Source: a virus
IMG/VR virus record: IMGVR_UViG_3300028610_001111
Direction: 5' to 3' (one strand)
DNA: 60,788 nucleotides
This document shows positions 35,797-57,424 of the stretch, piece by piece. How positions within the stretch are numbered: the stretch's first letter is position 1; each line of letters starts with the position of its first letter. The notes under the pieces are model-generated. The model was not told the origin of the DNA and made no database searches. It saw nothing but the letters and a program-made list of their open reading frames with translations. The position numbers and the translations under genes are program-made.

Positions 35797-35918
35797 TTGA
35801 ACAGGAAAAAGTATGCAGAGACTGCGGAAAACCAACAGGCAACAGGATATGGGTAAGATGCGCGAATTGCCACTTTGTAAAGAAGTTGAAAAGCTGGAGC
35901 AAGCAAAGGCCATCATGA
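35793..35918 (+). CDS. 41-aa zinc-ribbon ORF not in the track
   Basis: Hand translation MIEQEKVCRDCGKPTGNRIWVRCANCHFVKKLKSWSKQRPS*; ATGA overlaps at both ends. Confidence 0.5.
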   Translation: MIEQEKVCRDCGKPTGNRIWVRCANCHFVKKLKSWSKQRPS

Positions 35919-36382
35919 GCGAAGAGACCAAAATATGCACGTGTTGCGGTAAGCCGTTGCCGTTGTCTGATTACTTTATGCAACCAAGCACGCGGATGCA
36001 TATGTATAAGACGGCGGCTTCTCAGAGGAGAGCTGTTTGTAAGAAGTGCATGAAGCAGCAGCAGAGAGACAATTATCGGGCATGGCTAGGCGGAATTGCT
36101 TCCTCACTCAGAAAAGCAGGGCATAAAAATGTAACCATAAACGGGATTATAGAGCAGCTTGGAGACCCGGAAAAATGCCATATATCTGGTGCACTTATAA
36201 CATGGAAAGAAGCATCCCCCGATCATGTAGTTCCTTTGTCCAGAGGCGGGGCCAGGACTCTTGATAATGTCAAATGGGCGCATAGGGATTGCAATATGAT
36301 GAAACATGGCTTGCCGATGGAAGAGTTTATGGAATGGATGAAAAAAATTCAGACCTACCAAAGGAACAAGAGCGATGGATAA
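35915..36382 (+). CDS. HNH endonuclease, paralogue A
   Basis: ...SPDHVVPLSRGGARTLDNVKWAHRDCNMMKH... The start is refined to ATG 35915 (MSEETKICTCCGKPLPLS). That N-terminus aligns with MDKEETKQCGDCKNPFPLS of paralogue B. Confidence 0.75.
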   Translation: MSEETKICTCCGKPLPLSDYFMQPSTRMHMYKTAASQRRAVCKKCMKQQQRDNYRAWLGGIASSLRKAGHKNVTINGIIEQLGDPEKCHISGALITWKEASPDHVVPLSRGGARTLDNVKWAHRDCNMMKHGLPMEEFMEWMKKIQTYQRNKSDG

Positions 36383-36854
36383 AGAAGAAACAAAGCAGTG
36401 CGGTGATTGCAAAAATCCGTTTCCCTTATCTACGGGCTTTTACTTGAGATCTAAAAAAGATCAAGCAAAGGCGCGGACCGAAGGCGGAAAGTATGGATCT
36501 ATATGTAGAAAATGTCTGAAAATCAGAGAGGAAACGAACGTCAACTTGAAATGGAGACGCATAGCTGGATCATTGCGGCGCAGAGGTGTCATAAATATTG
36601 GCCTACAGGAAGTCAAGGACCACCTCGGTGAGCCAAGCGTTTGTTACCTCTGTGGAAAACCGTTGAGCTGGGCTGACGCAAGCCCTGACCATATTATCCC
36701 TCTGTCAAAAGGAGGTTCGCCAACATTGGATAATGTGGCATGGACACACGCTGATTGCAATATGAGCAAGCACAGCCTGTTGTTAGCTGAGTTTGTGCAA
36801 TTGATAGAAGATATTCTTAAACACCAAAAAAAAGGAAAAAACAATGACGACTAA
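36375..36854 (+). CDS. HNH endonuclease, paralogue B
   Basis: ...SPDHIIPLSKGGSPTLDNVAWTHADCNMSKH..., with an N-terminal CxxC...CxxC. Confidence 0.75.
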   Translation: MDKEETKQCGDCKNPFPLSTGFYLRSKKDQAKARTEGGKYGSICRKCLKIREETNVNLKWRRIAGSLRRRGVINIGLQEVKDHLGEPSVCYLCGKPLSWADASPDHIIPLSKGGSPTLDNVAWTHADCNMSKHSLLLAEFVQLIEDILKHQKKGKNNDD

Positions 36855-39128: not shown

Positions 39129-39917
39129 ATGAAAATCATCATACTAGGCAACGGCTTTTTGAGCAGAGCATATCAGGCCCGTGGCTATGAGCATGTGGAA
39201 CCACGGTTCGTGTTGCACGAGACTATATCAGCCACATTCGCGTCATTACGTGCGCTTTGCTTGTTTGCGGACGTGATAGTTAATTGCACTGGATGGGCTA
39301 ATACTAGGCTATGCGAGGGAACGCCTGAAATGGCAATGTTTGTGAACGGAGTTGTTCCTGCAAGAATCAGCGACTGGTGCGCCTTAAATAATAAGAAATA
39401 CGTTCACATCTCGACGGGATGCCTTTACGACCTTGCTCAAGCAAAAGAGACAGACCATATTTCCGCACATTGTGTCTACACGCTCTCTAAATGGATGGGA
39501 GAACTATCTATAGATAAAGAAAGAGACTTGATCCTTAGACCCAGGCTTTTATTTAATTCAGAGCGCACGCCTAAAAATTTCCTATTTAGGATGCAGTCAT
39601 TTGATTCAGCAGTAATAAATGCTCTTGATTCTTTTACTCATACACACACAGTAGTAGAAGCTACTAAAAAATTGCTTGATGCGAAAGTATCAGGAGTTTT
39701 TAATGTTGCTCAGACAGGCATTGCTTCCGTGCATGGTTTATGCGCTATTTGTAAAATACATAAAGAAAAAACAAGAATAGAAGTTCTGAGAAAACAAGAG
39801 AATATCCATCTAGTAAATTGCACCATGAATCTTGACAAACTTCTATACTACTATAAACCTGCGTTTTTTGTAGACTCTGTATCAAATGCATGGGCAAAAA
39901 TGATGAGGAAAATATGA
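39129..39917 (+). CDS. RmlD-like (dTDP-4-dehydrorhamnose reductase-type) SDR sugar-nucleotide reductase/epimerase
   Basis: MKIIILGNGFLS (degenerate Rossmann motif)...DVIVNCTGWAN...YVHISTGCLYD...YTLSKWMGE (YxxxK)...LILRPRLLF...NFLFRM. The collinear pattern matches RmlD as I remember it. Confidence 0.6.
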   Translation: MKIIILGNGFLSRAYQARGYEHVEPRFVLHETISATFASLRALCLFADVIVNCTGWANTRLCEGTPEMAMFVNGVVPARISDWCALNNKKYVHISTGCLYDLAQAKETDHISAHCVYTLSKWMGELSIDKERDLILRPRLLFNSERTPKNFLFRMQSFDSAVINALDSFTHTHTVVEATKKLLDAKVSGVFNVAQTGIASVHGLCAICKIHKEKTRIEVLRKQENIHLVNCTMNLDKLLYYYKPAFFVDSVSNAWAKMMRKI

Positions 39918-40389: not shown

Positions 40390-40483
40390 GTAGTGGTGAT
40401 GGAATTGGAAGACATGCCGTTGCAAGCGGTTTTGAGTAAGTTTGCGATACTCAATATTGTAGGTTCGAATCCTACCCACTACA
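40390..40483 (+). tRNA. class II-shaped tRNA (long variable arm) with anticodon loop TTGCAAG, giving anticodon GCA (Cys) by hand fold
   Basis: Hand fold:
- Acceptor stem GTAGTGG / CCACTAC (7 bp), discriminator A, then CC.
- D arm ATG-GAATTGGAAGA-CAT; the loop is almost identical to the E. coli tRNA-Leu D loop as I remember it.
- Anticodon stem GCCG / CGGT.
- Variable arm TTGAGTA-(9 nt)-TACTCAA.
- T arm GTAGG-TTCGAAT-CCTAC. Confidence 0.75.
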
Positions 40484-40498
40484 CCTTAAGGAGATATC

Positions 40499-40774
40499 AT
40501 GTACTTAGAATGCTTAGACAAAGAGATAGACAAAAAATTAGAACAAACAGCCGAAGAATGTAGAAAAATAGTAGAATTTTACAATAATAAATCTTTGATC
40601 TACAGGTTGTTAAACGATTGTGATTCTATGATAAAGACTGATGTTTCTATTTTATGGATGAATTTTGATTTTTGGAAAAAAATGAGAAGAGCCAATATGG
40701 AGTTTGTAGAAGCTCAAAAAACCGCGACCAGCTTGATGGAGGATGTTATCAATGAAACTACTCTACCTAGATAA
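40499..40774 (+). CDS. hypothetical protein (91 aa)
   Basis: Track ORF; AAGGAG RBS 6 nt upstream. Confidence 0.6.
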   Translation: MYLECLDKEIDKKLEQTAEECRKIVEFYNNKSLIYRLLNDCDSMIKTDVSILWMNFDFWKKMRRANMEFVEAQKTATSLMEDVINETTLPR

Positions 40775-43706: not shown

Positions 43707-44081
43707 ATGATCTATTACCGTCAAAAATACATCACACTAACTGGTATAGATTTACCCTCTCAATTCCATGTTCACCATATGGATCACTGCAAGGAAAATA
43801 ATTCAATTCATAACCTAGTAGCTCTCCCAAACTCGCTACATATGAAGTTTCACGCCGCGTACAGTCTATGTTTTGATGATGCATATGAATGTACACTTAA
43901 TAAAGATTTCATGCTTCTTAGTAGCGGTAATAACGGAATGGTATCTATACTTATAGCTCAAATGACAAATCTTGCTGCTTTGTATGACGAATGCCAAAGA
44001 TGGTTATTTTTTCGTAACTTTTTACTTGGTAAATACGAATATAATTTTTATGAGTTATCATATGAAACCTATAAAGGATGA
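43707..44081 (+). CDS. HNH endonuclease-like protein (124 aa)
   Basis: ...QFHVHHMDHCKENNSIHNLVALPNSLHMKFH... (HH..D...N...NL..L....H...H). Confidence 0.6.
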   Translation: MIYYRQKYITLTGIDLPSQFHVHHMDHCKENNSIHNLVALPNSLHMKFHAAYSLCFDDAYECTLNKDFMLLSSGNNGMVSILIAQMTNLAALYDECQRWLFFRNFLLGKYEYNFYELSYETYKG

Positions 44082-44864: not shown

Positions 44865-44973
44865 ATAACTTTACCCCCGGCCACGCCTTACTGGTTGAGA
44901 TCTGCGCTTTGTTGGATTAGCAATGATGAATGCCTGCGGGCCGGGGTTATTTAACAATAAGAAAGGATCAGGC

Positions 44974-45672
44974 ATGAAGTTTGAAATAAAACATAAGATA
45001 AGCGGCAAGATATTGTTTGAGTGTGAATCTAAAAGCTGGAAGCTAGCAATAGAGCTAGCAATTGAACGCTCTGCGAACCTACGCTCTGCGAACCTAAGCT
45101 CTGCGGACCTACGCTCTGCGAACCTAAGCTATGCGAACCTAAGCTCTGCGGACCTAAGCTCTGCGAACCTAAGCTATGCGAACCTAAGCTCTGCGAACCT
45201 ACGCTCTGCGAACCTAAGCTATGCGAACCTAAGCTCTGCGAACCTAAGCTCTGCGAACCTAAGCTATGCGAACCTAAGCTCTGCGAACCTACGCTCTGCG
45301 AACCTAAGCTATGCGAACCTAAGCTCTGCGAAAAATTCTTCCTTGGCCATTGCTGTAACGAGAGTGGCACCTCTGGAAGGATCATTTACAGGCTGGAAAA
45401 AGTGCAATGGTAACGTTATTGTAAAATTGAAAATCCCGATAAACGCAAAAAGGTCAAATGCATTCGGTCGTAAATGTCGTGCTGAATTTGCAGAAGTTGT
45501 TGACATACTGTCCGATGAAAAAGAAGTTTTTTCTTCTCACGATCCTAACTTTATGTATAAGAAAGGGAAAACTGTGACCTGTGATAAGTGGGATGAAAGC
45601 TTTGAAAACGAATGTTCCGGCGGAATTCATTTTTTCATGACAAAAGAAGAGGCTGAGCACTGGATATTATAA
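44974..45672 (+). CDS. pentapeptide-repeat protein with globular C-terminal domain
   Basis: Start at ATG 44974 after AAAGGA. About 18 consecutive A(N/D)L(S/R)(S/Y) pentapeptides, then ...GWKKCNGNVIVKLKIP...GGIHFFMTKEEAEHW. Confidence 0.8.
   Translation: MKFEIKHKISGKILFECESKSWKLAIELAIERSANLRSANLSSADLRSANLSYANLSSADLSSANLSYANLSSANLRSANLSYANLSSANLSSANLSYANLSSANLRSANLSYANLSSAKNSSLAIAVTRVAPLEGSFTGWKKCNGNVIVKLKIPINAKRSNAFGRKCRAEFAEVVDILSDEKEVFSSHDPNFMYKKGKTVTCDKWDESFENECSGGIHFFMTKEEAEHWIL
45073..45327 (+). repeat. 17 tandem copies of a 15-bp unit (GCGAACCTAAGCTCT and 1-2-nt variants) inside the pentapeptide-repeat gene
   Basis: Counted directly; units differ only at the A/G, A/C and C/A positions. 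Confidence 0.95.
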
Positions 45673-46654: not shown

Positions 46655-46680
46655 AGTAACGAATTTGAAAGAGATTGAGT

Positions 46681-47547
46681 ATGCAGACTAAAATATCATG
46701 GCCTAAAGGCCCGTTTTTCTGGCGTGGTGAATCACGCAACTATTGCAGTATTCCGTTCACATGGAATATTAAGCCAGTACGCAAGTTCATAGCCAAGCAC
46801 GGCGGCTTATGGTCTATTGGGGGCCCAGCGTGTGATTTAATTCCGTTCGCCTTTTCTGATATGCAGAACGTAATGGCCGGGGGTGGATTTTCCGGGATCC
46901 TGCAAAAGCTTAATCCGCATGCAACACGCACAACTACAGGATGCCCGAACAGTTGCCAATTCTGCGGAATAGGACAGAAACTGATAGAGCCGTTTTTTGA
47001 TGAGCTTGACGACTGGCCTGATTTGCCTATCATTTGCGACAATAATTTACTCGGTGCATCAGAAAGGCATTTACAAAGAGTGTTTGAGCGTTTGCGCTGG
47101 TGGGGATGGGCTGACTTTAATCAAGGGCTGGACTGTCGAAAAATAACGCCCGAGATAGCCTCGGAGCTTAACTCCATAGGCAAACCGATTGCAAGGATAG
47201 CTCTTGACGGATGGAGTGTTGCTGGCTCATGGGTTAAAGCTATCAACCTTTTGAGAGAAGCCGGATTCCCAAAGAGGCGGATACATTCGTATGTCATGAT
47301 CGGATATGGCGACGAACCTGCAAGGGATATAGACAGAATACAGTTTGCAAAGAATATTCTTAGTCCGGCATGTGTCAATGCTATGTGGTTCCATGAGTTA
47401 GACGCAGTGAAAAGTAATGTAACAACGGAAAATCAGGCTGCTTACGGATGGTCAGACAGGCTAAGAATAGATACTATGCGCTGGTCTTATGGTAGGGCAG
47501 CTAAACCAAAATATTCACCAACACTTAGAATTAACCGGAGGAAATAG
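46681..47547 (+). CDS. radical-SAM-like enzyme (288 aa)
   Basis: CX3CX2C cluster TTGCPNSCQFCGIG ~85 aa from the N-terminus. Downstream are collinear radical-SAM-barrel-like motifs (...NQGLD..., ...RIALDG..., ...YVMIGYGDEPARDI...). No SPASM-type second Cys cluster. The track start at 46675 is TTG; ATG is at 46681. Confidence 0.55.
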   Translation: MQTKISWPKGPFFWRGESRNYCSIPFTWNIKPVRKFIAKHGGLWSIGGPACDLIPFAFSDMQNVMAGGGFSGILQKLNPHATRTTTGCPNSCQFCGIGQKLIEPFFDELDDWPDLPIICDNNLLGASERHLQRVFERLRWWGWADFNQGLDCRKITPEIASELNSIGKPIARIALDGWSVAGSWVKAINLLREAGFPKRRIHSYVMIGYGDEPARDIDRIQFAKNILSPACVNAMWFHELDAVKSNVTTENQAAYGWSDRLRIDTMRWSYGRAAKPKYSPTLRINRRK

Positions 47548-51215: not shown

Positions 51216-51992
51216 ATGGATAGAGCGAATGTACAAATAAATAGAATTAACAGAGTGAACAAAGACGGAGAAACTCACACAGCTAAGCAGTCGGGCAAAG
51301 ATTACAGTGTATGGGAATTCGATTGCGAGGGTTTTATTAACGGTAGCTCTGTAGATCATTTTCTTGTGAAGACATTGAGCGGCAAAGCTGCTGGATGGAT
51401 TAAATCAGGACAATTGAAAGATTTTCCTGCCGAAATAGATGTATTTCAAAATACAACTACTTACAAAGTGCCTAGAGAAATGTACGCTAACGATCAGCAA
51501 CAAGGCAATCAACAGAATAACACTCAAGGCTATCAACAGCCGCCTCAGAATAACACTCAACAGCCTCCACCCTTCACACCGCCTGCTACAACTCAGTTTC
51601 AACCACAGACTAGCAACAGCTATAGCTTGGAAGATCTGAAGGCATTGCTTCAAGACTGTTGGATCTTCTGTAACACTGAGCTTTCTGAAAATGATGATAT
51701 AGCTCAGAAACTGGCAGCAACACTGTACATAGCAGCAACACACGAACACTTGAAGGCAGAAGTAGTTAATGTTCAGCAGCAAGGTAATCAAGGCGGAACG
51801 AATAATAACAATATGCAGAACACATTAATGATTGCTATTAATGATTGTCTGTCAAAGACCGGCCTTGCTCAAAGAGTTGCTACAGGTAAAATGCAAAATG
51901 ATTTCCTTATTGACGTATGGAATCAATGTAACGCAGATAGCAATACATTCGCATCTCGTATAAATCAAGAACTATTCAGCAAAGGAGCATAA
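51216..51992 (+). CDS. putative ssDNA-binding/recombination-associated protein with Q/N/P-rich linker
   Basis: ATG 51216 follows AAAGGAG by 6 nt; the track start at 51192 is GTG. Beta-rich N-domain, linker ...DQQQGNQQNNTQGYQQPPQNNTQQPPPFTPPATTQFQPQ..., then a helical C-domain. Function is inferred from position only. Confidence 0.4.
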   Translation: MDRANVQINRINRVNKDGETHTAKQSGKDYSVWEFDCEGFINGSSVDHFLVKTLSGKAAGWIKSGQLKDFPAEIDVFQNTTTYKVPREMYANDQQQGNQQNNTQGYQQPPQNNTQQPPPFTPPATTQFQPQTSNSYSLEDLKALLQDCWIFCNTELSENDDIAQKLAATLYIAATHEHLKAEVVNVQQQGNQGGTNNNNMQNTLMIAINDCLSKTGLAQRVATGKMQNDFLIDVWNQCNADSNTFASRINQELFSKGA

Positions 51993-52261
51993 TGACAACA
52001 GAAGACAGGAGAGAAAGCGCAGTTAAAAAGAAACGCGGAACATGTGCCATTCTTATGAAATGTGCAGATCAGAAAATTGTAATTGATGACGTAGAATACG
52101 ATGAAGTGTATGTAAGGATTGCTTCAGAAAACGAAGCAATAAGAACATCAAAAGATGTCAAAGAATACATGAATGAAAACGATATGTTAGGAACTGTATA
52201 TGCAGCACGCCTTAACGTACCGATCACAAGGGTAGTTCAAAAAATAGCAAAATTCAGTTAA
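51992..52261 (+). CDS. hypothetical protein (89 aa)
   Basis: Track ORF; TAATG overlap. Confidence 0.55.
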   Translation: MTTEDRRESAVKKKRGTCAILMKCADQKIVIDDVEYDEVYVRIASENEAIRTSKDVKEYMNENDMLGTVYAARLNVPITRVVQKIAKFS

Positions 52262-52268
52262 TATGATT

Positions 52269-52354
52269 ACGGTTGTAGTGTAGCCAGGCAGCACGCAGGA
52301 GCTAGCTAATAAAATGTAACCTGAAGGCCGGTTCAAATCCGGGCAACCGTACCA
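52269..52354 (+). tRNA. tRNA-like gene with encoded CCA but an over-long anticodon region (non-canonical or degenerate)
   Basis: Hand fold:
- Acceptor ACGGTTG / CAACCGT, discriminator A, then CCA.
- D arm GTGT-AGCCAGGCA-GCAC.
- T arm (G)CCGG-TTCAAAT-CCGG(G).
- Between them, CAGG...CCTG encloses 20 nt (AGCTAGCTAATAAAATGTAA) instead of a 7-nt loop. Confidence 0.5.
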
Positions 52355-56586: not shown

Positions 56587-57041
56587 GTAAGTATAAAGAA
56601 TACAATAAGCTTATAGTCACTGCTTATTATGTACAGCAAGGCTTGCCTGAACCAGTATACGAACATAAATTCCATGATACTAGAAGGTGGAAGTTTGACA
56701 TAGCATGGCCAAAACTAAAGATAGCCTTGGAGGTCGAGGGCGGTGTTTTTACAGGCGGTAGACATACTAGGGGCAAAGGCTTTGTAAAGGACATGGAGAA
56801 ATATAATTCAGCGGCTACTCTAGGGTGGGTTGTTGTTAGATGCATTCCTGATGAAGTTTGCATGCTGGACACTATTGAAATGGTTAAGAAAGTTATAACC
56901 ATTTACGGACAAGAGAAAAAGTGTCAACTCGATTTTGAATACTGGCTAAAACAAACCTGCTTCCAGCAGCCTACGCCAGAAGCTTATGATTTAGCTAAGT
57001 CTGCATGGGAAGCGGCAGATACATACCAAAAACTTAAATGA
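56583..57041 (+). CDS. Vsr/DUF559-like PD-(D/E)XK endonuclease
   Basis: ...WKFDIAWPKLKIALEVEGGVFTGGRHTRGKGF..DMEKYN.A..LGW.V.R (D...E-V-E-G...K pattern). Confidence 0.55.
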   Translation: MSKYKEYNKLIVTAYYVQQGLPEPVYEHKFHDTRRWKFDIAWPKLKIALEVEGGVFTGGRHTRGKGFVKDMEKYNSAATLGWVVVRCIPDEVCMLDTIEMVKKVITIYGQEKKCQLDFEYWLKQTCFQQPTPEAYDLAKSAWEAADTYQKLK

Positions 57042-57424
57042 ATAAGAACTCAAGACTTAAAAAAGAATTGTTTAGACTGTGGCAGGAATGCCAGGCTATA
57101 ATATGGAAGCATGGTTGCGGATGGTGTATGAAGCCAGGGCCTATAACAGGGCATCACATCATAATTAGGAATTACAAGCTAACTGCGTGGAAACTTCTAA
57201 ACGGAATAGGATTATGCGATGATTGTCATAGGAAAGTTCACGATGATGAGCATGCTGATAAAGAACTACTCGAACACATACGTAATAAATGGCCCCATAT
57301 TTTTAACTATCATGCTAAATTCTGGCCTCTCGCAAGAAGAAACACACATGTTTTTTTAAAGCATGAATTAATTGAAATACGATCAGAACTTAAGAGGTTT
57401 ATAGAAACTCACAATGATGCCTAG
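57038..57424 (+). CDS. HNH/NinG(Rap)-like zinc-finger nuclease candidate
   Basis: ...CGWC...GHHII...LCDDCHRKVHDDEH... Confidence 0.5.
   Translation: MNKNSRLKKELFRLWQECQAIIWKHGCGWCMKPGPITGHHIIIRNYKLTAWKLLNGIGLCDDCHRKVHDDEHADKELLEHIRNKWPHIFNYHAKFWPLARRNTHVFLKHELIEIRSELKRFIETHNDA

Follow-up and report, generated by a model that had tools for sequence, protein, structure and literature searches.

A class II tRNA-like gene with a leucine-type body, a cysteine anticodon and a shortened anticodon arm in a phage genome

We analysed a 60,788-nucleotide (nt) stretch of viral DNA (IMG/VR record IMGVR_UViG_3300028610_001111, hereafter the window) for a tRNA-like gene at positions 40,390 to 40,483, which we call element 1. 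The gene lies on the plus strand among the early genes of a phage, with an open reading frame (ORF) for a 122-amino-acid (aa) protein directly upstream and an SNF2 helicase gene downstream. An original prediction, made from the letters alone, had described it as a class II-shaped tRNA with a Leu-like D loop, a very long variable arm and A73, carrying the Cys anticodon GCA. Judged by its sequence, element 1 is real and unusual: it carries the sequence elements by which leucyl-tRNA synthetase (LeuRS) recognises its substrates, and it departs from tRNA-Cys, from the allo-tRNAs and from canonical decoding tRNAs. It is better regarded as an interesting oddity than as a tRNA shown to mistranslate.

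Element 1 folds as a class II cloverleaf

At default settings, ARAGORN reported element 1 as the sole tRNA in the window, a tRNA-Cys(gca) of 96 nt. The general tRNA model RF00005 of Rfam gave it 36.2 bits, where the gathering score is 29 (E = 6e-4 in a search of the whole window), and the 7-bp acceptor stem, 5-bp T stem, T-loop consensus and G18G19 of the D loop that characterise this family were all present. A class II tRNA-Leu covariance model (A2/R1), built in this analysis from 15 tRNA-Leu sequences, gave 52.2 bits (E = 3e-11), 16 bits above the general model. The perfect acceptor stem and the T arm of the original prediction lie where it had placed them; its anticodon loop TTGCAAG, with U33 and a purine at position 37 around GCA, and its A73 are likewise in the sequence, and the variable region, put at about 27 nt with a 7-bp stem, measures 28 nt (Table 1). 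This stem is perfect and closes a 9-nt loop, AGTTTGCGA; the last T of the region can act as U48.

None of the 26 stem pairs is broken and only one is a G·U, so that element 1 is not visibly decaying. The free energy of the cloverleaf exceeds the minimum by 0.6-2.7 kcal/mol, and both inner hairpins are stable (pair probabilities 0.65-0.86). Base -1 (40389) is T, and an extra pair T-1:A73 is possible, which would turn the 7/5 branch into 8/5. Other readings of the locus were rejected. ARAGORN run with introns returned the same fold; the long hairpin was ruled out as the anticodon arm, having a 9-nt loop and a pyrimidine at the would-be position 37; and a fragment of the attP type did not fit, both acceptor strands and all arms being present.

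Table 1. Coordinates of element 1, of other features of the window and of tRNA-like loci in comparison sequences (L numbers)
Feature	Location	Strand	Remarks
Element 1, tRNA-like gene, class II cloverleaf with tRNA-Leu-type body	40390-40483	+	94 nt to the discriminator
Acceptor stem, 5' strand, GTAGTGG	40390-40396	+	7/7 Watson-Crick pairs with CCACTAC (40476-40482); pair probabilities 0.94-1.0
D arm, ATG-GAATTGGAAGA-CAT	40399-40415	+	3-bp stem, 11-nt loop; G13·A22, A14, A15, G18G19, A20a; tRNA-Leu layout
Anticodon hairpin, GCCG-TTGCAAG-CGGT	40416-40430	+	G·U and three G-C pairs, 7-nt loop; pair probabilities 0.67-0.75
GCA	40422-40424	+	Sole triplet in the anticodon position of the 7-nt loop, with U33 and A37 (ARAGORN)
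Variable region, 28 nt	40431-40458	+	T, 7-bp hairpin 40432-40454 (stem 40432-40438/40448-40454), then TATT; pair probabilities 0.65-0.86
T arm, GTAGG-TTCGAAT-CCTAC	40459-40475	+	Sequence and Rfam alignment
Acceptor 3' strand CCACTAC, A73 (40483), CC	40476-40485	+	Next base T; CCA not fully encoded
Upstream ORF, 122 aa	40012-40380	+	Stop codon 9 nt before element 1; tblastn matches in L001, L002, L005
Shine-Dalgarno sequence AAGGAG (40488-40493) and ATG of the next ORF (40499)	40488-40501	+	Shine-Dalgarno sequence begins 4 nt past A73
Element 2, tRNA-like gene	52269-52354	+	Acceptor ACGGTTG/CAACCGT; A73; CCA encoded
ORF before element 2	51992-52261		Stop codon 7 nt before element 2
ATG of the SbcC-like gene	52369		Preceded by AGGAG
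Early module	32913-57424	+	Several small ORFs with 9-14% Cys
HNH endonuclease genes (at least four)	35813-36382, 36375-36854, 43707-44081, 57038-57424		Early module
RmlD/epimerase-like NAD-binding protein	39129-39917	+	Two genes upstream of element 1
Pentapeptide-repeat protein with C-terminal DUF5758 domain	44923-45672	+	Early module
Weak radical-SAM match	46675-47547	+	Downstream of element 1
Leu-bodied tRNAs, Saccharibacteria	L091: 738-820, 879-970	-	Class II, A73
Leu-bodied tRNA, Allosphingosinicella	L093: 5448-5529	+	Class II, A73
Leu-bodied tRNAs, Anaerolineae	L096: 6602-6880	-	Class II, A73
Element of Croceibacter phage P2559Y	L006: 1451-1538		KC688701.1, 26696-26783
Phage tRNA-like gene	L025: 8563-8642		Also L029
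Phage tRNA-like gene	L086: 2035-2139	-	A73
tRNA array of an uncultured huge phage	L008: 540-805, 1092-1538		LR745206.1

The body carries leucine identity elements

The D region of element 1 (TGATGGAATTGGAAGACATG) matches the D region of tRNA-Leu(UAA) in L032 and L047 at 19 out of 20 positions, and its nearest neighbours among the 245 distinct tRNAs compared were tRNA-Leu. Isotype sequence profiles placed Leu_II first (19.8), followed by Tyr (17.7) and Cys (16.2), in a comparison set biased toward the T arm of element 1. BLAST against the E. coli genome named no nearest isotype. Together, the D-region match and the score on the Leu model bear out the Leu-like D arm and body that the original prediction had described.

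The sequence contains A73, A14, A15 with U48, G18G19, A20a and a 3-bp D stem. A73, A14, A15:U48, G18G19 and A20a form the set reported to be essential for E. coli LeuRS, an enzyme that requires neither the anticodon arm nor the variable arm and leucylates tRNA-Leu variants without both (PMC9976931), which supports the earlier claim that LeuRS ignores the anticodon. Cysteinyl-tRNA synthetase (CysRS) relies chiefly on U73, its strongest determinant, and on GCA, a major determinant (PMC9976931). Agreeing with this rule, to which the original prediction had appealed, all of the ordinary tRNA-Cys(GCA) compared had U73 (9 out of 9), those of phages with variable regions of 8-12 nt (L036, L072 and L079) among them; element 1 has A73. 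What element 1 shares with tRNA-Cys is GCA, and U73, the class I shape and a best score on the Cys profile are all missing. What it lacks as a class II tRNA-Leu is a Leu anticodon (NAG or YAA), the LeuRS identity set being there.

Compared with class II bacterial tRNA-Leu, element 1 has the same D arm layout and sequence, A73, A15:U48, G18G19, A20a and a long variable arm. It differs in its GCA, in an anticodon arm that is 2 nt short and without nucleotide 26 instead of normal, and in a variable region of 28 nt (7-bp stem, 9-nt loop) instead of about 13-16 nt. Its 52.2 bits on the class II Leu model, obtained with the arm skipped, stand against 88 bits for the tRNA-Leu of L096 and 78-80 bits for the Leu-bodied tRNAs of L091 and L093.

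The best explanation of this likeness would be descent from a class II tRNA-Leu. With the Leu identity elements present and U73 absent, element 1 would by the established rules be a substrate of LeuRS and a poor substrate of CysRS. The original prediction had allowed charging with either leucine or serine; the set for leucine is in place, but serine appears unlikely because bacterial tRNA-Ser has G73 and another D arm. Searches of 30 phage proteins against Pfam and of 10 against PHROGs revealed no synthetase and no tRNA enzyme.

The anticodon arm is two nucleotides short

The original prediction overlooked the state of the anticodon stem. The anticodon arm of element 1 has 15 nt instead of the canonical 17, and nucleotide 26 is missing. 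Alignment with genuine class II tRNA-Leu located the deficit on the 5' side, where two nucleotides are absent between the D stem and the anticodon loop. The stem, made of C-G, C-G, G-C and G·U, directly abuts the D stem, and of the features of a canonical tRNA (5-bp anticodon stem, 7-nt loop and nucleotide 26) only the 7-nt loop is present. The 6-position anticodon stem drawn by ARAGORN needs the D stem to be dissolved and a U×U mismatch to be accepted. A covariance fold might, as the original prediction had foreseen, have placed a different anticodon; none was placed, but the Rfam model and the class II Leu model both skipped the anticodon arm by a local end ([19] and [28], respectively) and so left it unaligned. 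This deficit would leave the stack of D and anticodon stems with about 8 layers, not 10.

Some 5.6% of bacterial tRNA genes have a 4-bp anticodon stem owing to an unpaired terminal pair, and these tRNAs can function (Fakih et al. 2026, PMC13092985). Element 1 resembles them in having fewer than five stem pairs, a state that is compatible with decoding and alters it. However, those tRNAs keep all 17 arm nucleotides and nucleotide 26, with the terminal pair of a five-position stem merely unpaired, and the effect was shown for C34 tRNAs (PMC13092985), whereas element 1 is short by two nucleotides and falls outside this class.

Element 1 is an apparent insertion in the early operon of a probably recurrent phage

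The window, 60.8 kb long, looks like a complete phage contig, with structural genes on the minus strand, early and replication genes on the plus strand, and capsid and portal matches of the SU10 type. The same phage was found in three other assemblies (L080-L082, with L083 as another window on the L080 contig), whose identity to it is 99.97% or more over 6.3 kb and 100% in element 1. These three (JGI 3300009788, ENA ERZ27251120 and SRR5210996) were assembled independently, from at least three other samples, and are each about 60.77 kb long. The window is probably the complete genome of a recurrent phage.

Relatives were found through the SNF2 helicase, at 49-60% identity (L001-L005, L099 and L100), and none of them had a tRNA detectable by ARAGORN, Rfam or the class II Leu model. 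A weak match in L099 (15.6 bits) was rejected as a homologue, its T loop being non-canonical and its acceptor pairs broken. Homologues of both the 122-aa protein and the SNF2 helicase are present in L001, L002 and L005, with no tRNA between them, on which grounds element 1 appears to be a lineage-specific insertion at a gene junction of the plus-strand early operon. No promoter-like match was seen on the plus strand directly upstream of element 1.

We found no diverged homologue of element 1 in any collection scanned. Among GenBank phages, its 6-kb neighbourhood had no close relatives, and element 1 alone returned only short T-arm matches. Exact-pattern scans of viral contigs gave no homologue, only ordinary tRNAs and elements of the P2559Y type, of the L025 type and of L086; those of genome contigs gave Leu-bodied tRNAs, none with the architecture of element 1; and that of metagenome contigs gave 52 loci, nearly all of them ordinary tRNA-Tyr or tRNA-Ser with TTGCAA in the D stem.

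A second tRNA-like gene lies in the same module

Element 2 (Table 1) has a D arm GTGT-AGCCAGGCA-GCAC, with GG, and a T arm CCGG-TTCAAAT-CCGG with four pairs and a G/G mismatch at the fifth position. In place of an anticodon arm, a 4-bp stem CAGG/CCTG closes a 20-nt loop; there is no anticodon loop. ARAGORN at default settings and the whole-window Rfam search missed it; a local RF00005 search gave 33.7 bits against 29, and the class II Leu model gave 19 bits (52269-52351). Element 2 gave no isotype signal and no homologue of it was found, and a filter-free scan of the window detected no third tRNA-like element.

Element 2 fills the interval between the stop codon of one ORF and the AGGAG of the next gene, which is SbcC-like. 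In L001 and L005, the SbcC-like homologues have an unrelated small ORF directly before and overlapping them, with no gap for element 2, which therefore also looks like a lineage-specific insertion at a gene junction. Two unrelated junction insertions, each with the acceptor/T/D half intact and an abnormal anticodon arm, argue for a use by the phage beyond normal decoding.

Cysteine demand is high in the early module

The early module encodes 3.14% Cys, with 229 UGY codons and 40 CxxC motifs, against 0.85% Cys and 5 CxxC motifs in the late module. Cys is the most enriched amino acid of the early module (ratio 3.7; next highest 1.5), and GCA therefore looks non-accidental, which favours a supply of Cys. 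Many of these residues sit in zinc-ribbon and HNH motifs, so that a Leu-inserting tRNA would be self-damaging. A reassignment of UGY codons was rejected: Cys codons fall within CxxC, zinc-ribbon and HNH motifs, and stop codons are used in the ordinary way.

Parallels in bacteria and phages

The allo-tRNAs (Mukai et al. 2017, PMC5389517) likewise come from bacteria and phages and combine a long variable arm with a body identity that mismatches the anticodon; some are active missense suppressors, and others are apparently charged but unused, or inactive. Element 1 has this mismatch, a Leu-type body with GCA. In the allo-tRNAs, however, the 12-bp acceptor branch is of the 8/4 or 9/3 type, the D arm resembles that of tRNA-Sec in its long stem and tetraloop, the anticodon stem is longer and the identity is mostly Ser (PMC5389517), whereas element 1 has a 7/5 branch, a Leu-type D arm, A73 without the Ser set and a shortened anticodon stem. 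The likeness to allo-tRNAs drawn in the original prediction thus does not extend to membership. The selC* tRNA-Cys of the same report also combine a long variable arm with GCA (or UCA); they have U73 and a modified 8/4 branch and are charged by CysRS or a dedicated CysRS* alongside selenocysteine machinery (Mukai et al. 2017, PMC5389517), and with A73 and 7/5 element 1 is not one of them.

Class II tRNAs with a Leu body, A73 and anticodons for Ala (UGC), Cys (GCA) or Thr (AGU) are present in bacterial genomes of several phyla (L091, L093 and L096, Table 1; also L087, L088, L089, L092 and L097). Those of L091, in a Saccharibacteria metagenome-assembled genome (MAG), lie just downstream of tuf-rpsJ and include a GCA tRNA; that of L093 (Allosphingosinicella) has its CCA encoded and lies near an IS1595 transposase; and in L096 (Anaerolineae) a genuine tRNA-Leu(UAG) has three UGC copies in tandem next to it. 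The odd tRNAs of L091, L093 and L096 share with element 1 the Leu body, A73 and a Cys or Ala anticodon, but have a normal 5-bp anticodon stem and a normal variable arm, with 52-80 bits on the Leu model. No description of Leu-bodied tRNAs with Ala, Cys or Thr anticodons was found in the literature searched. On these sequences, the mismatch of identity and anticodon that was first proposed for element 1 appears to have natural parallels.

Single tRNA-like genes with A73 and T at -1 also occur in other phages. The element of Croceibacter phage P2559Y (L006) and its relatives in L014, L062, L067 and L025 are of this kind; like element 1 they have the T stem GTAGG/CCTAC, their anticodon arm is abnormal and contains UUGCAA, and they are enlarged by 14-18 nucleotides. 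BLAST aligned the P2559Y element with the 3' 39 nt of element 1 at 87% identity (E = 6e-3), a similarity that may rest mostly on the T arm. It differs in its class I-type D arm and in a 5-position anticodon stem closing a 21-nt loop that starts with UUGCAA, and it is not Leu-like on profiles. It scores 52 bits with Rfam and is unannotated in the published genome; ARAGORN reads it either with a 4-base anticodon 'gcaa' or as a tRNA-Arg(gcg) with a 14-nt insert. The L025 gene has an abnormal anticodon region with a perfect palindrome, TTGTTGCAACAA, and the L086 gene combines an exact tRNA-Leu D arm and TTGCAAG with a 53-nt central region that contains a long hairpin. Base -1 is T in all five odd tRNA-like genes (40389 and 52268 in the window; L006, L025 and L086), and a pair between this base and A73 could lengthen the acceptor stem to 8 bp. 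U at -1 is the base preferred by bacterial RNase P.

Interpretation and rival explanations

We tentatively favour the view that element 1 is processed into a tRNA-like RNA that can probably be leucylated, has little or no decoding activity and shares its role with element 2. All of the functional steps in this account are ones that we infer. The RNA would be co-transcribed with the neighbouring genes, RNase P would cut at its 5' end (base -1 being U), and the tRNA 3'-end enzymes and the CCA-adding enzyme would complete its 3' end; excision would split the early transcript at this junction. The released RNA would offer all elements known to be read by bacterial LeuRS and, of those needed by CysRS, the anticodon only, and if charged it would most likely carry leucine. 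Decoding of UGU/UGC is expected to be weak or nil because of the D/anticodon stack of about 8 layers. Its main role would, for that reason, more likely be one that needs the acceptor/T/D half only, either as an operon processing signal or as a chargeable tRNA-like RNA outside normal decoding. Irregular tRNAs that are charged yet unused in translation have been reported (PMC5389517).

Several points weigh against this view. The lead of Leu over the other isotypes on the profiles is narrow (19.8 versus 17.7 for Tyr and 16.2 for Cys). As tRNAs with fewer than five anticodon-stem pairs can work, the argument from stem length is one of geometry and not proof. UUGCAAG is a proper anticodon-loop signature, and GCA matches the Cys enrichment of the early module, which is a coincidence if element 1 does not decode. 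Element 1 is also a single sequence, identical in four assemblies, with no variation for covariation. Ordinary phage tRNA genes, too, are tightly packed between genes.

Element 1 could instead be an odd-shaped but genuine tRNA-Cys that is charged with Cys and supplies the Cys-rich early proteins, the alternative that the original prediction had called mundane. This fits the codon demand, GCA is itself a major determinant for CysRS (PMC9976931), tRNA-Cys of other phages have enlarged variable regions, and the A73 Leu-bodied GCA tRNA beside tuf-rpsJ in Saccharibacteria hints at routine use of such molecules in some lineages. It conflicts, however, with A73 in the place of U73, a base that all nine ordinary tRNA-Cys keep, phage ones with long variable regions included; the Cys profile scores below the Leu profile, the anticodon arm is shortened and the phage proteins scanned against Pfam include no synthetase. 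We regard a genuine tRNA-Cys as unlikely, if worth keeping in mind. The converse would be a working mis-incorporating tRNA, charged with leucine by LeuRS and reading UGU/UGC so that Leu is inserted at Cys codons early in infection. The complete Leu identity set with A73, the indifference of LeuRS to the anticodon (PMC9976931) and the proper 7-nt loop with U33-GCA-A37 speak for it, as do well-formed Leu-bodied GCA/UGC tRNAs of bacteria (77.8 bits for L091 and 80.4 bits for L093 on the Leu model) and allo-tRNAs, which show that identity-swapped tRNAs can be translationally active (PMC5389517). Yet the anticodon arm is two nucleotides short and aligned by neither covariance model, element 1 is not conserved in related phages, and the main victims would be the early proteins of the phage itself, several of them HNH or zinc-ribbon proteins. 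Element 2, having no anticodon loop, cannot decode at all. The truncated arm, the Cys-rich early proteins and element 2 argue against deliberate Cys-to-Leu mistranslation, which we hold to be improbable; of the mis-incorporating reader first proposed, the Leu-like body stands and activity as a decoder is doubtful. We see as little promise in the wider notion that element 1 is a functional class II reader of Cys codons and takes its identity from something other than U73, whether as an inserter of Leu or as a Leu-shaped real tRNA-Cys with A73 like that of L091.

It is equally doubtful that element 1 is the functionless relic of a tRNA-Leu gene that was gained recently and then lost a small piece of its anticodon arm. 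The gene is a singleton absent from relatives, its 2-nt deficit resembles a deletion, its general tRNA score is low (36 bits) and several bacterial Leu-bodied UGC copies (L087, L088 and L089) are pseudogene-like, with broken acceptor stems; but its five helices, the 7-bp variable stem among them, are free of mismatches, the genome, though densely packed, retains it precisely between a stop codon and the Shine-Dalgarno sequence that follows, and a second, unrelated tRNA-like element has the same layout. A look-alike that occupies a tRNA-targeting defence enzyme of the host, or another tRNA-binding protein, without decoding would account for the two tRNA-like genes, in which the acceptor/T/D half is intact and the anticodon arm aberrant, and for the unannotated phage genes with abnormal arms around UUGCAA (P2559Y, L025 and L086). 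No defence-related or tRNA-modifying partner gene was found among the phage proteins scanned, however, and no family conservation; the idea is purely analogical, and we give it very little weight.

If element 1 were charged and did decode, it would be a natural phage tRNA of the 7/5 type that sets Leu identity against a Cys anticodon, and it would carry the concept of allo-tRNAs over to a new scaffold as well as to a new pair of codons; the question would then be how a phage with early proteins rich in zinc fingers tolerates it. If it does not decode, which we deem more likely, elements 1 and 2 would be phage tRNA-like genes that keep the acceptor/T/D half only, pointing to a tRNA shape that serves operon processing or some role outside translation. 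Standard tRNA finders cope badly with elements of this kind: at default settings element 2 was missed, and that of P2559Y was left unannotated. A separate study may be worthwhile for the Leu-bodied tRNAs of several bacterial phyla that have an Ala or Cys anticodon.

Other observations

Beyond its small Cys-rich ORFs and HNH endonuclease genes, the early module encodes a pentapeptide-repeat protein, and the RmlD/epimerase-like and radical-SAM-like proteins on either side of element 1 may relate to nucleotide or DNA modification (Table 1). In the tRNA array of an uncultured huge phage (L008) there are tRNA-Lys(UUU/CUU) with a class II shape and a length of 84-87 nt; three genes of the array are tRNA-Sec-like (allo-tRNA-like), and one tRNA-like gene has no D arm.

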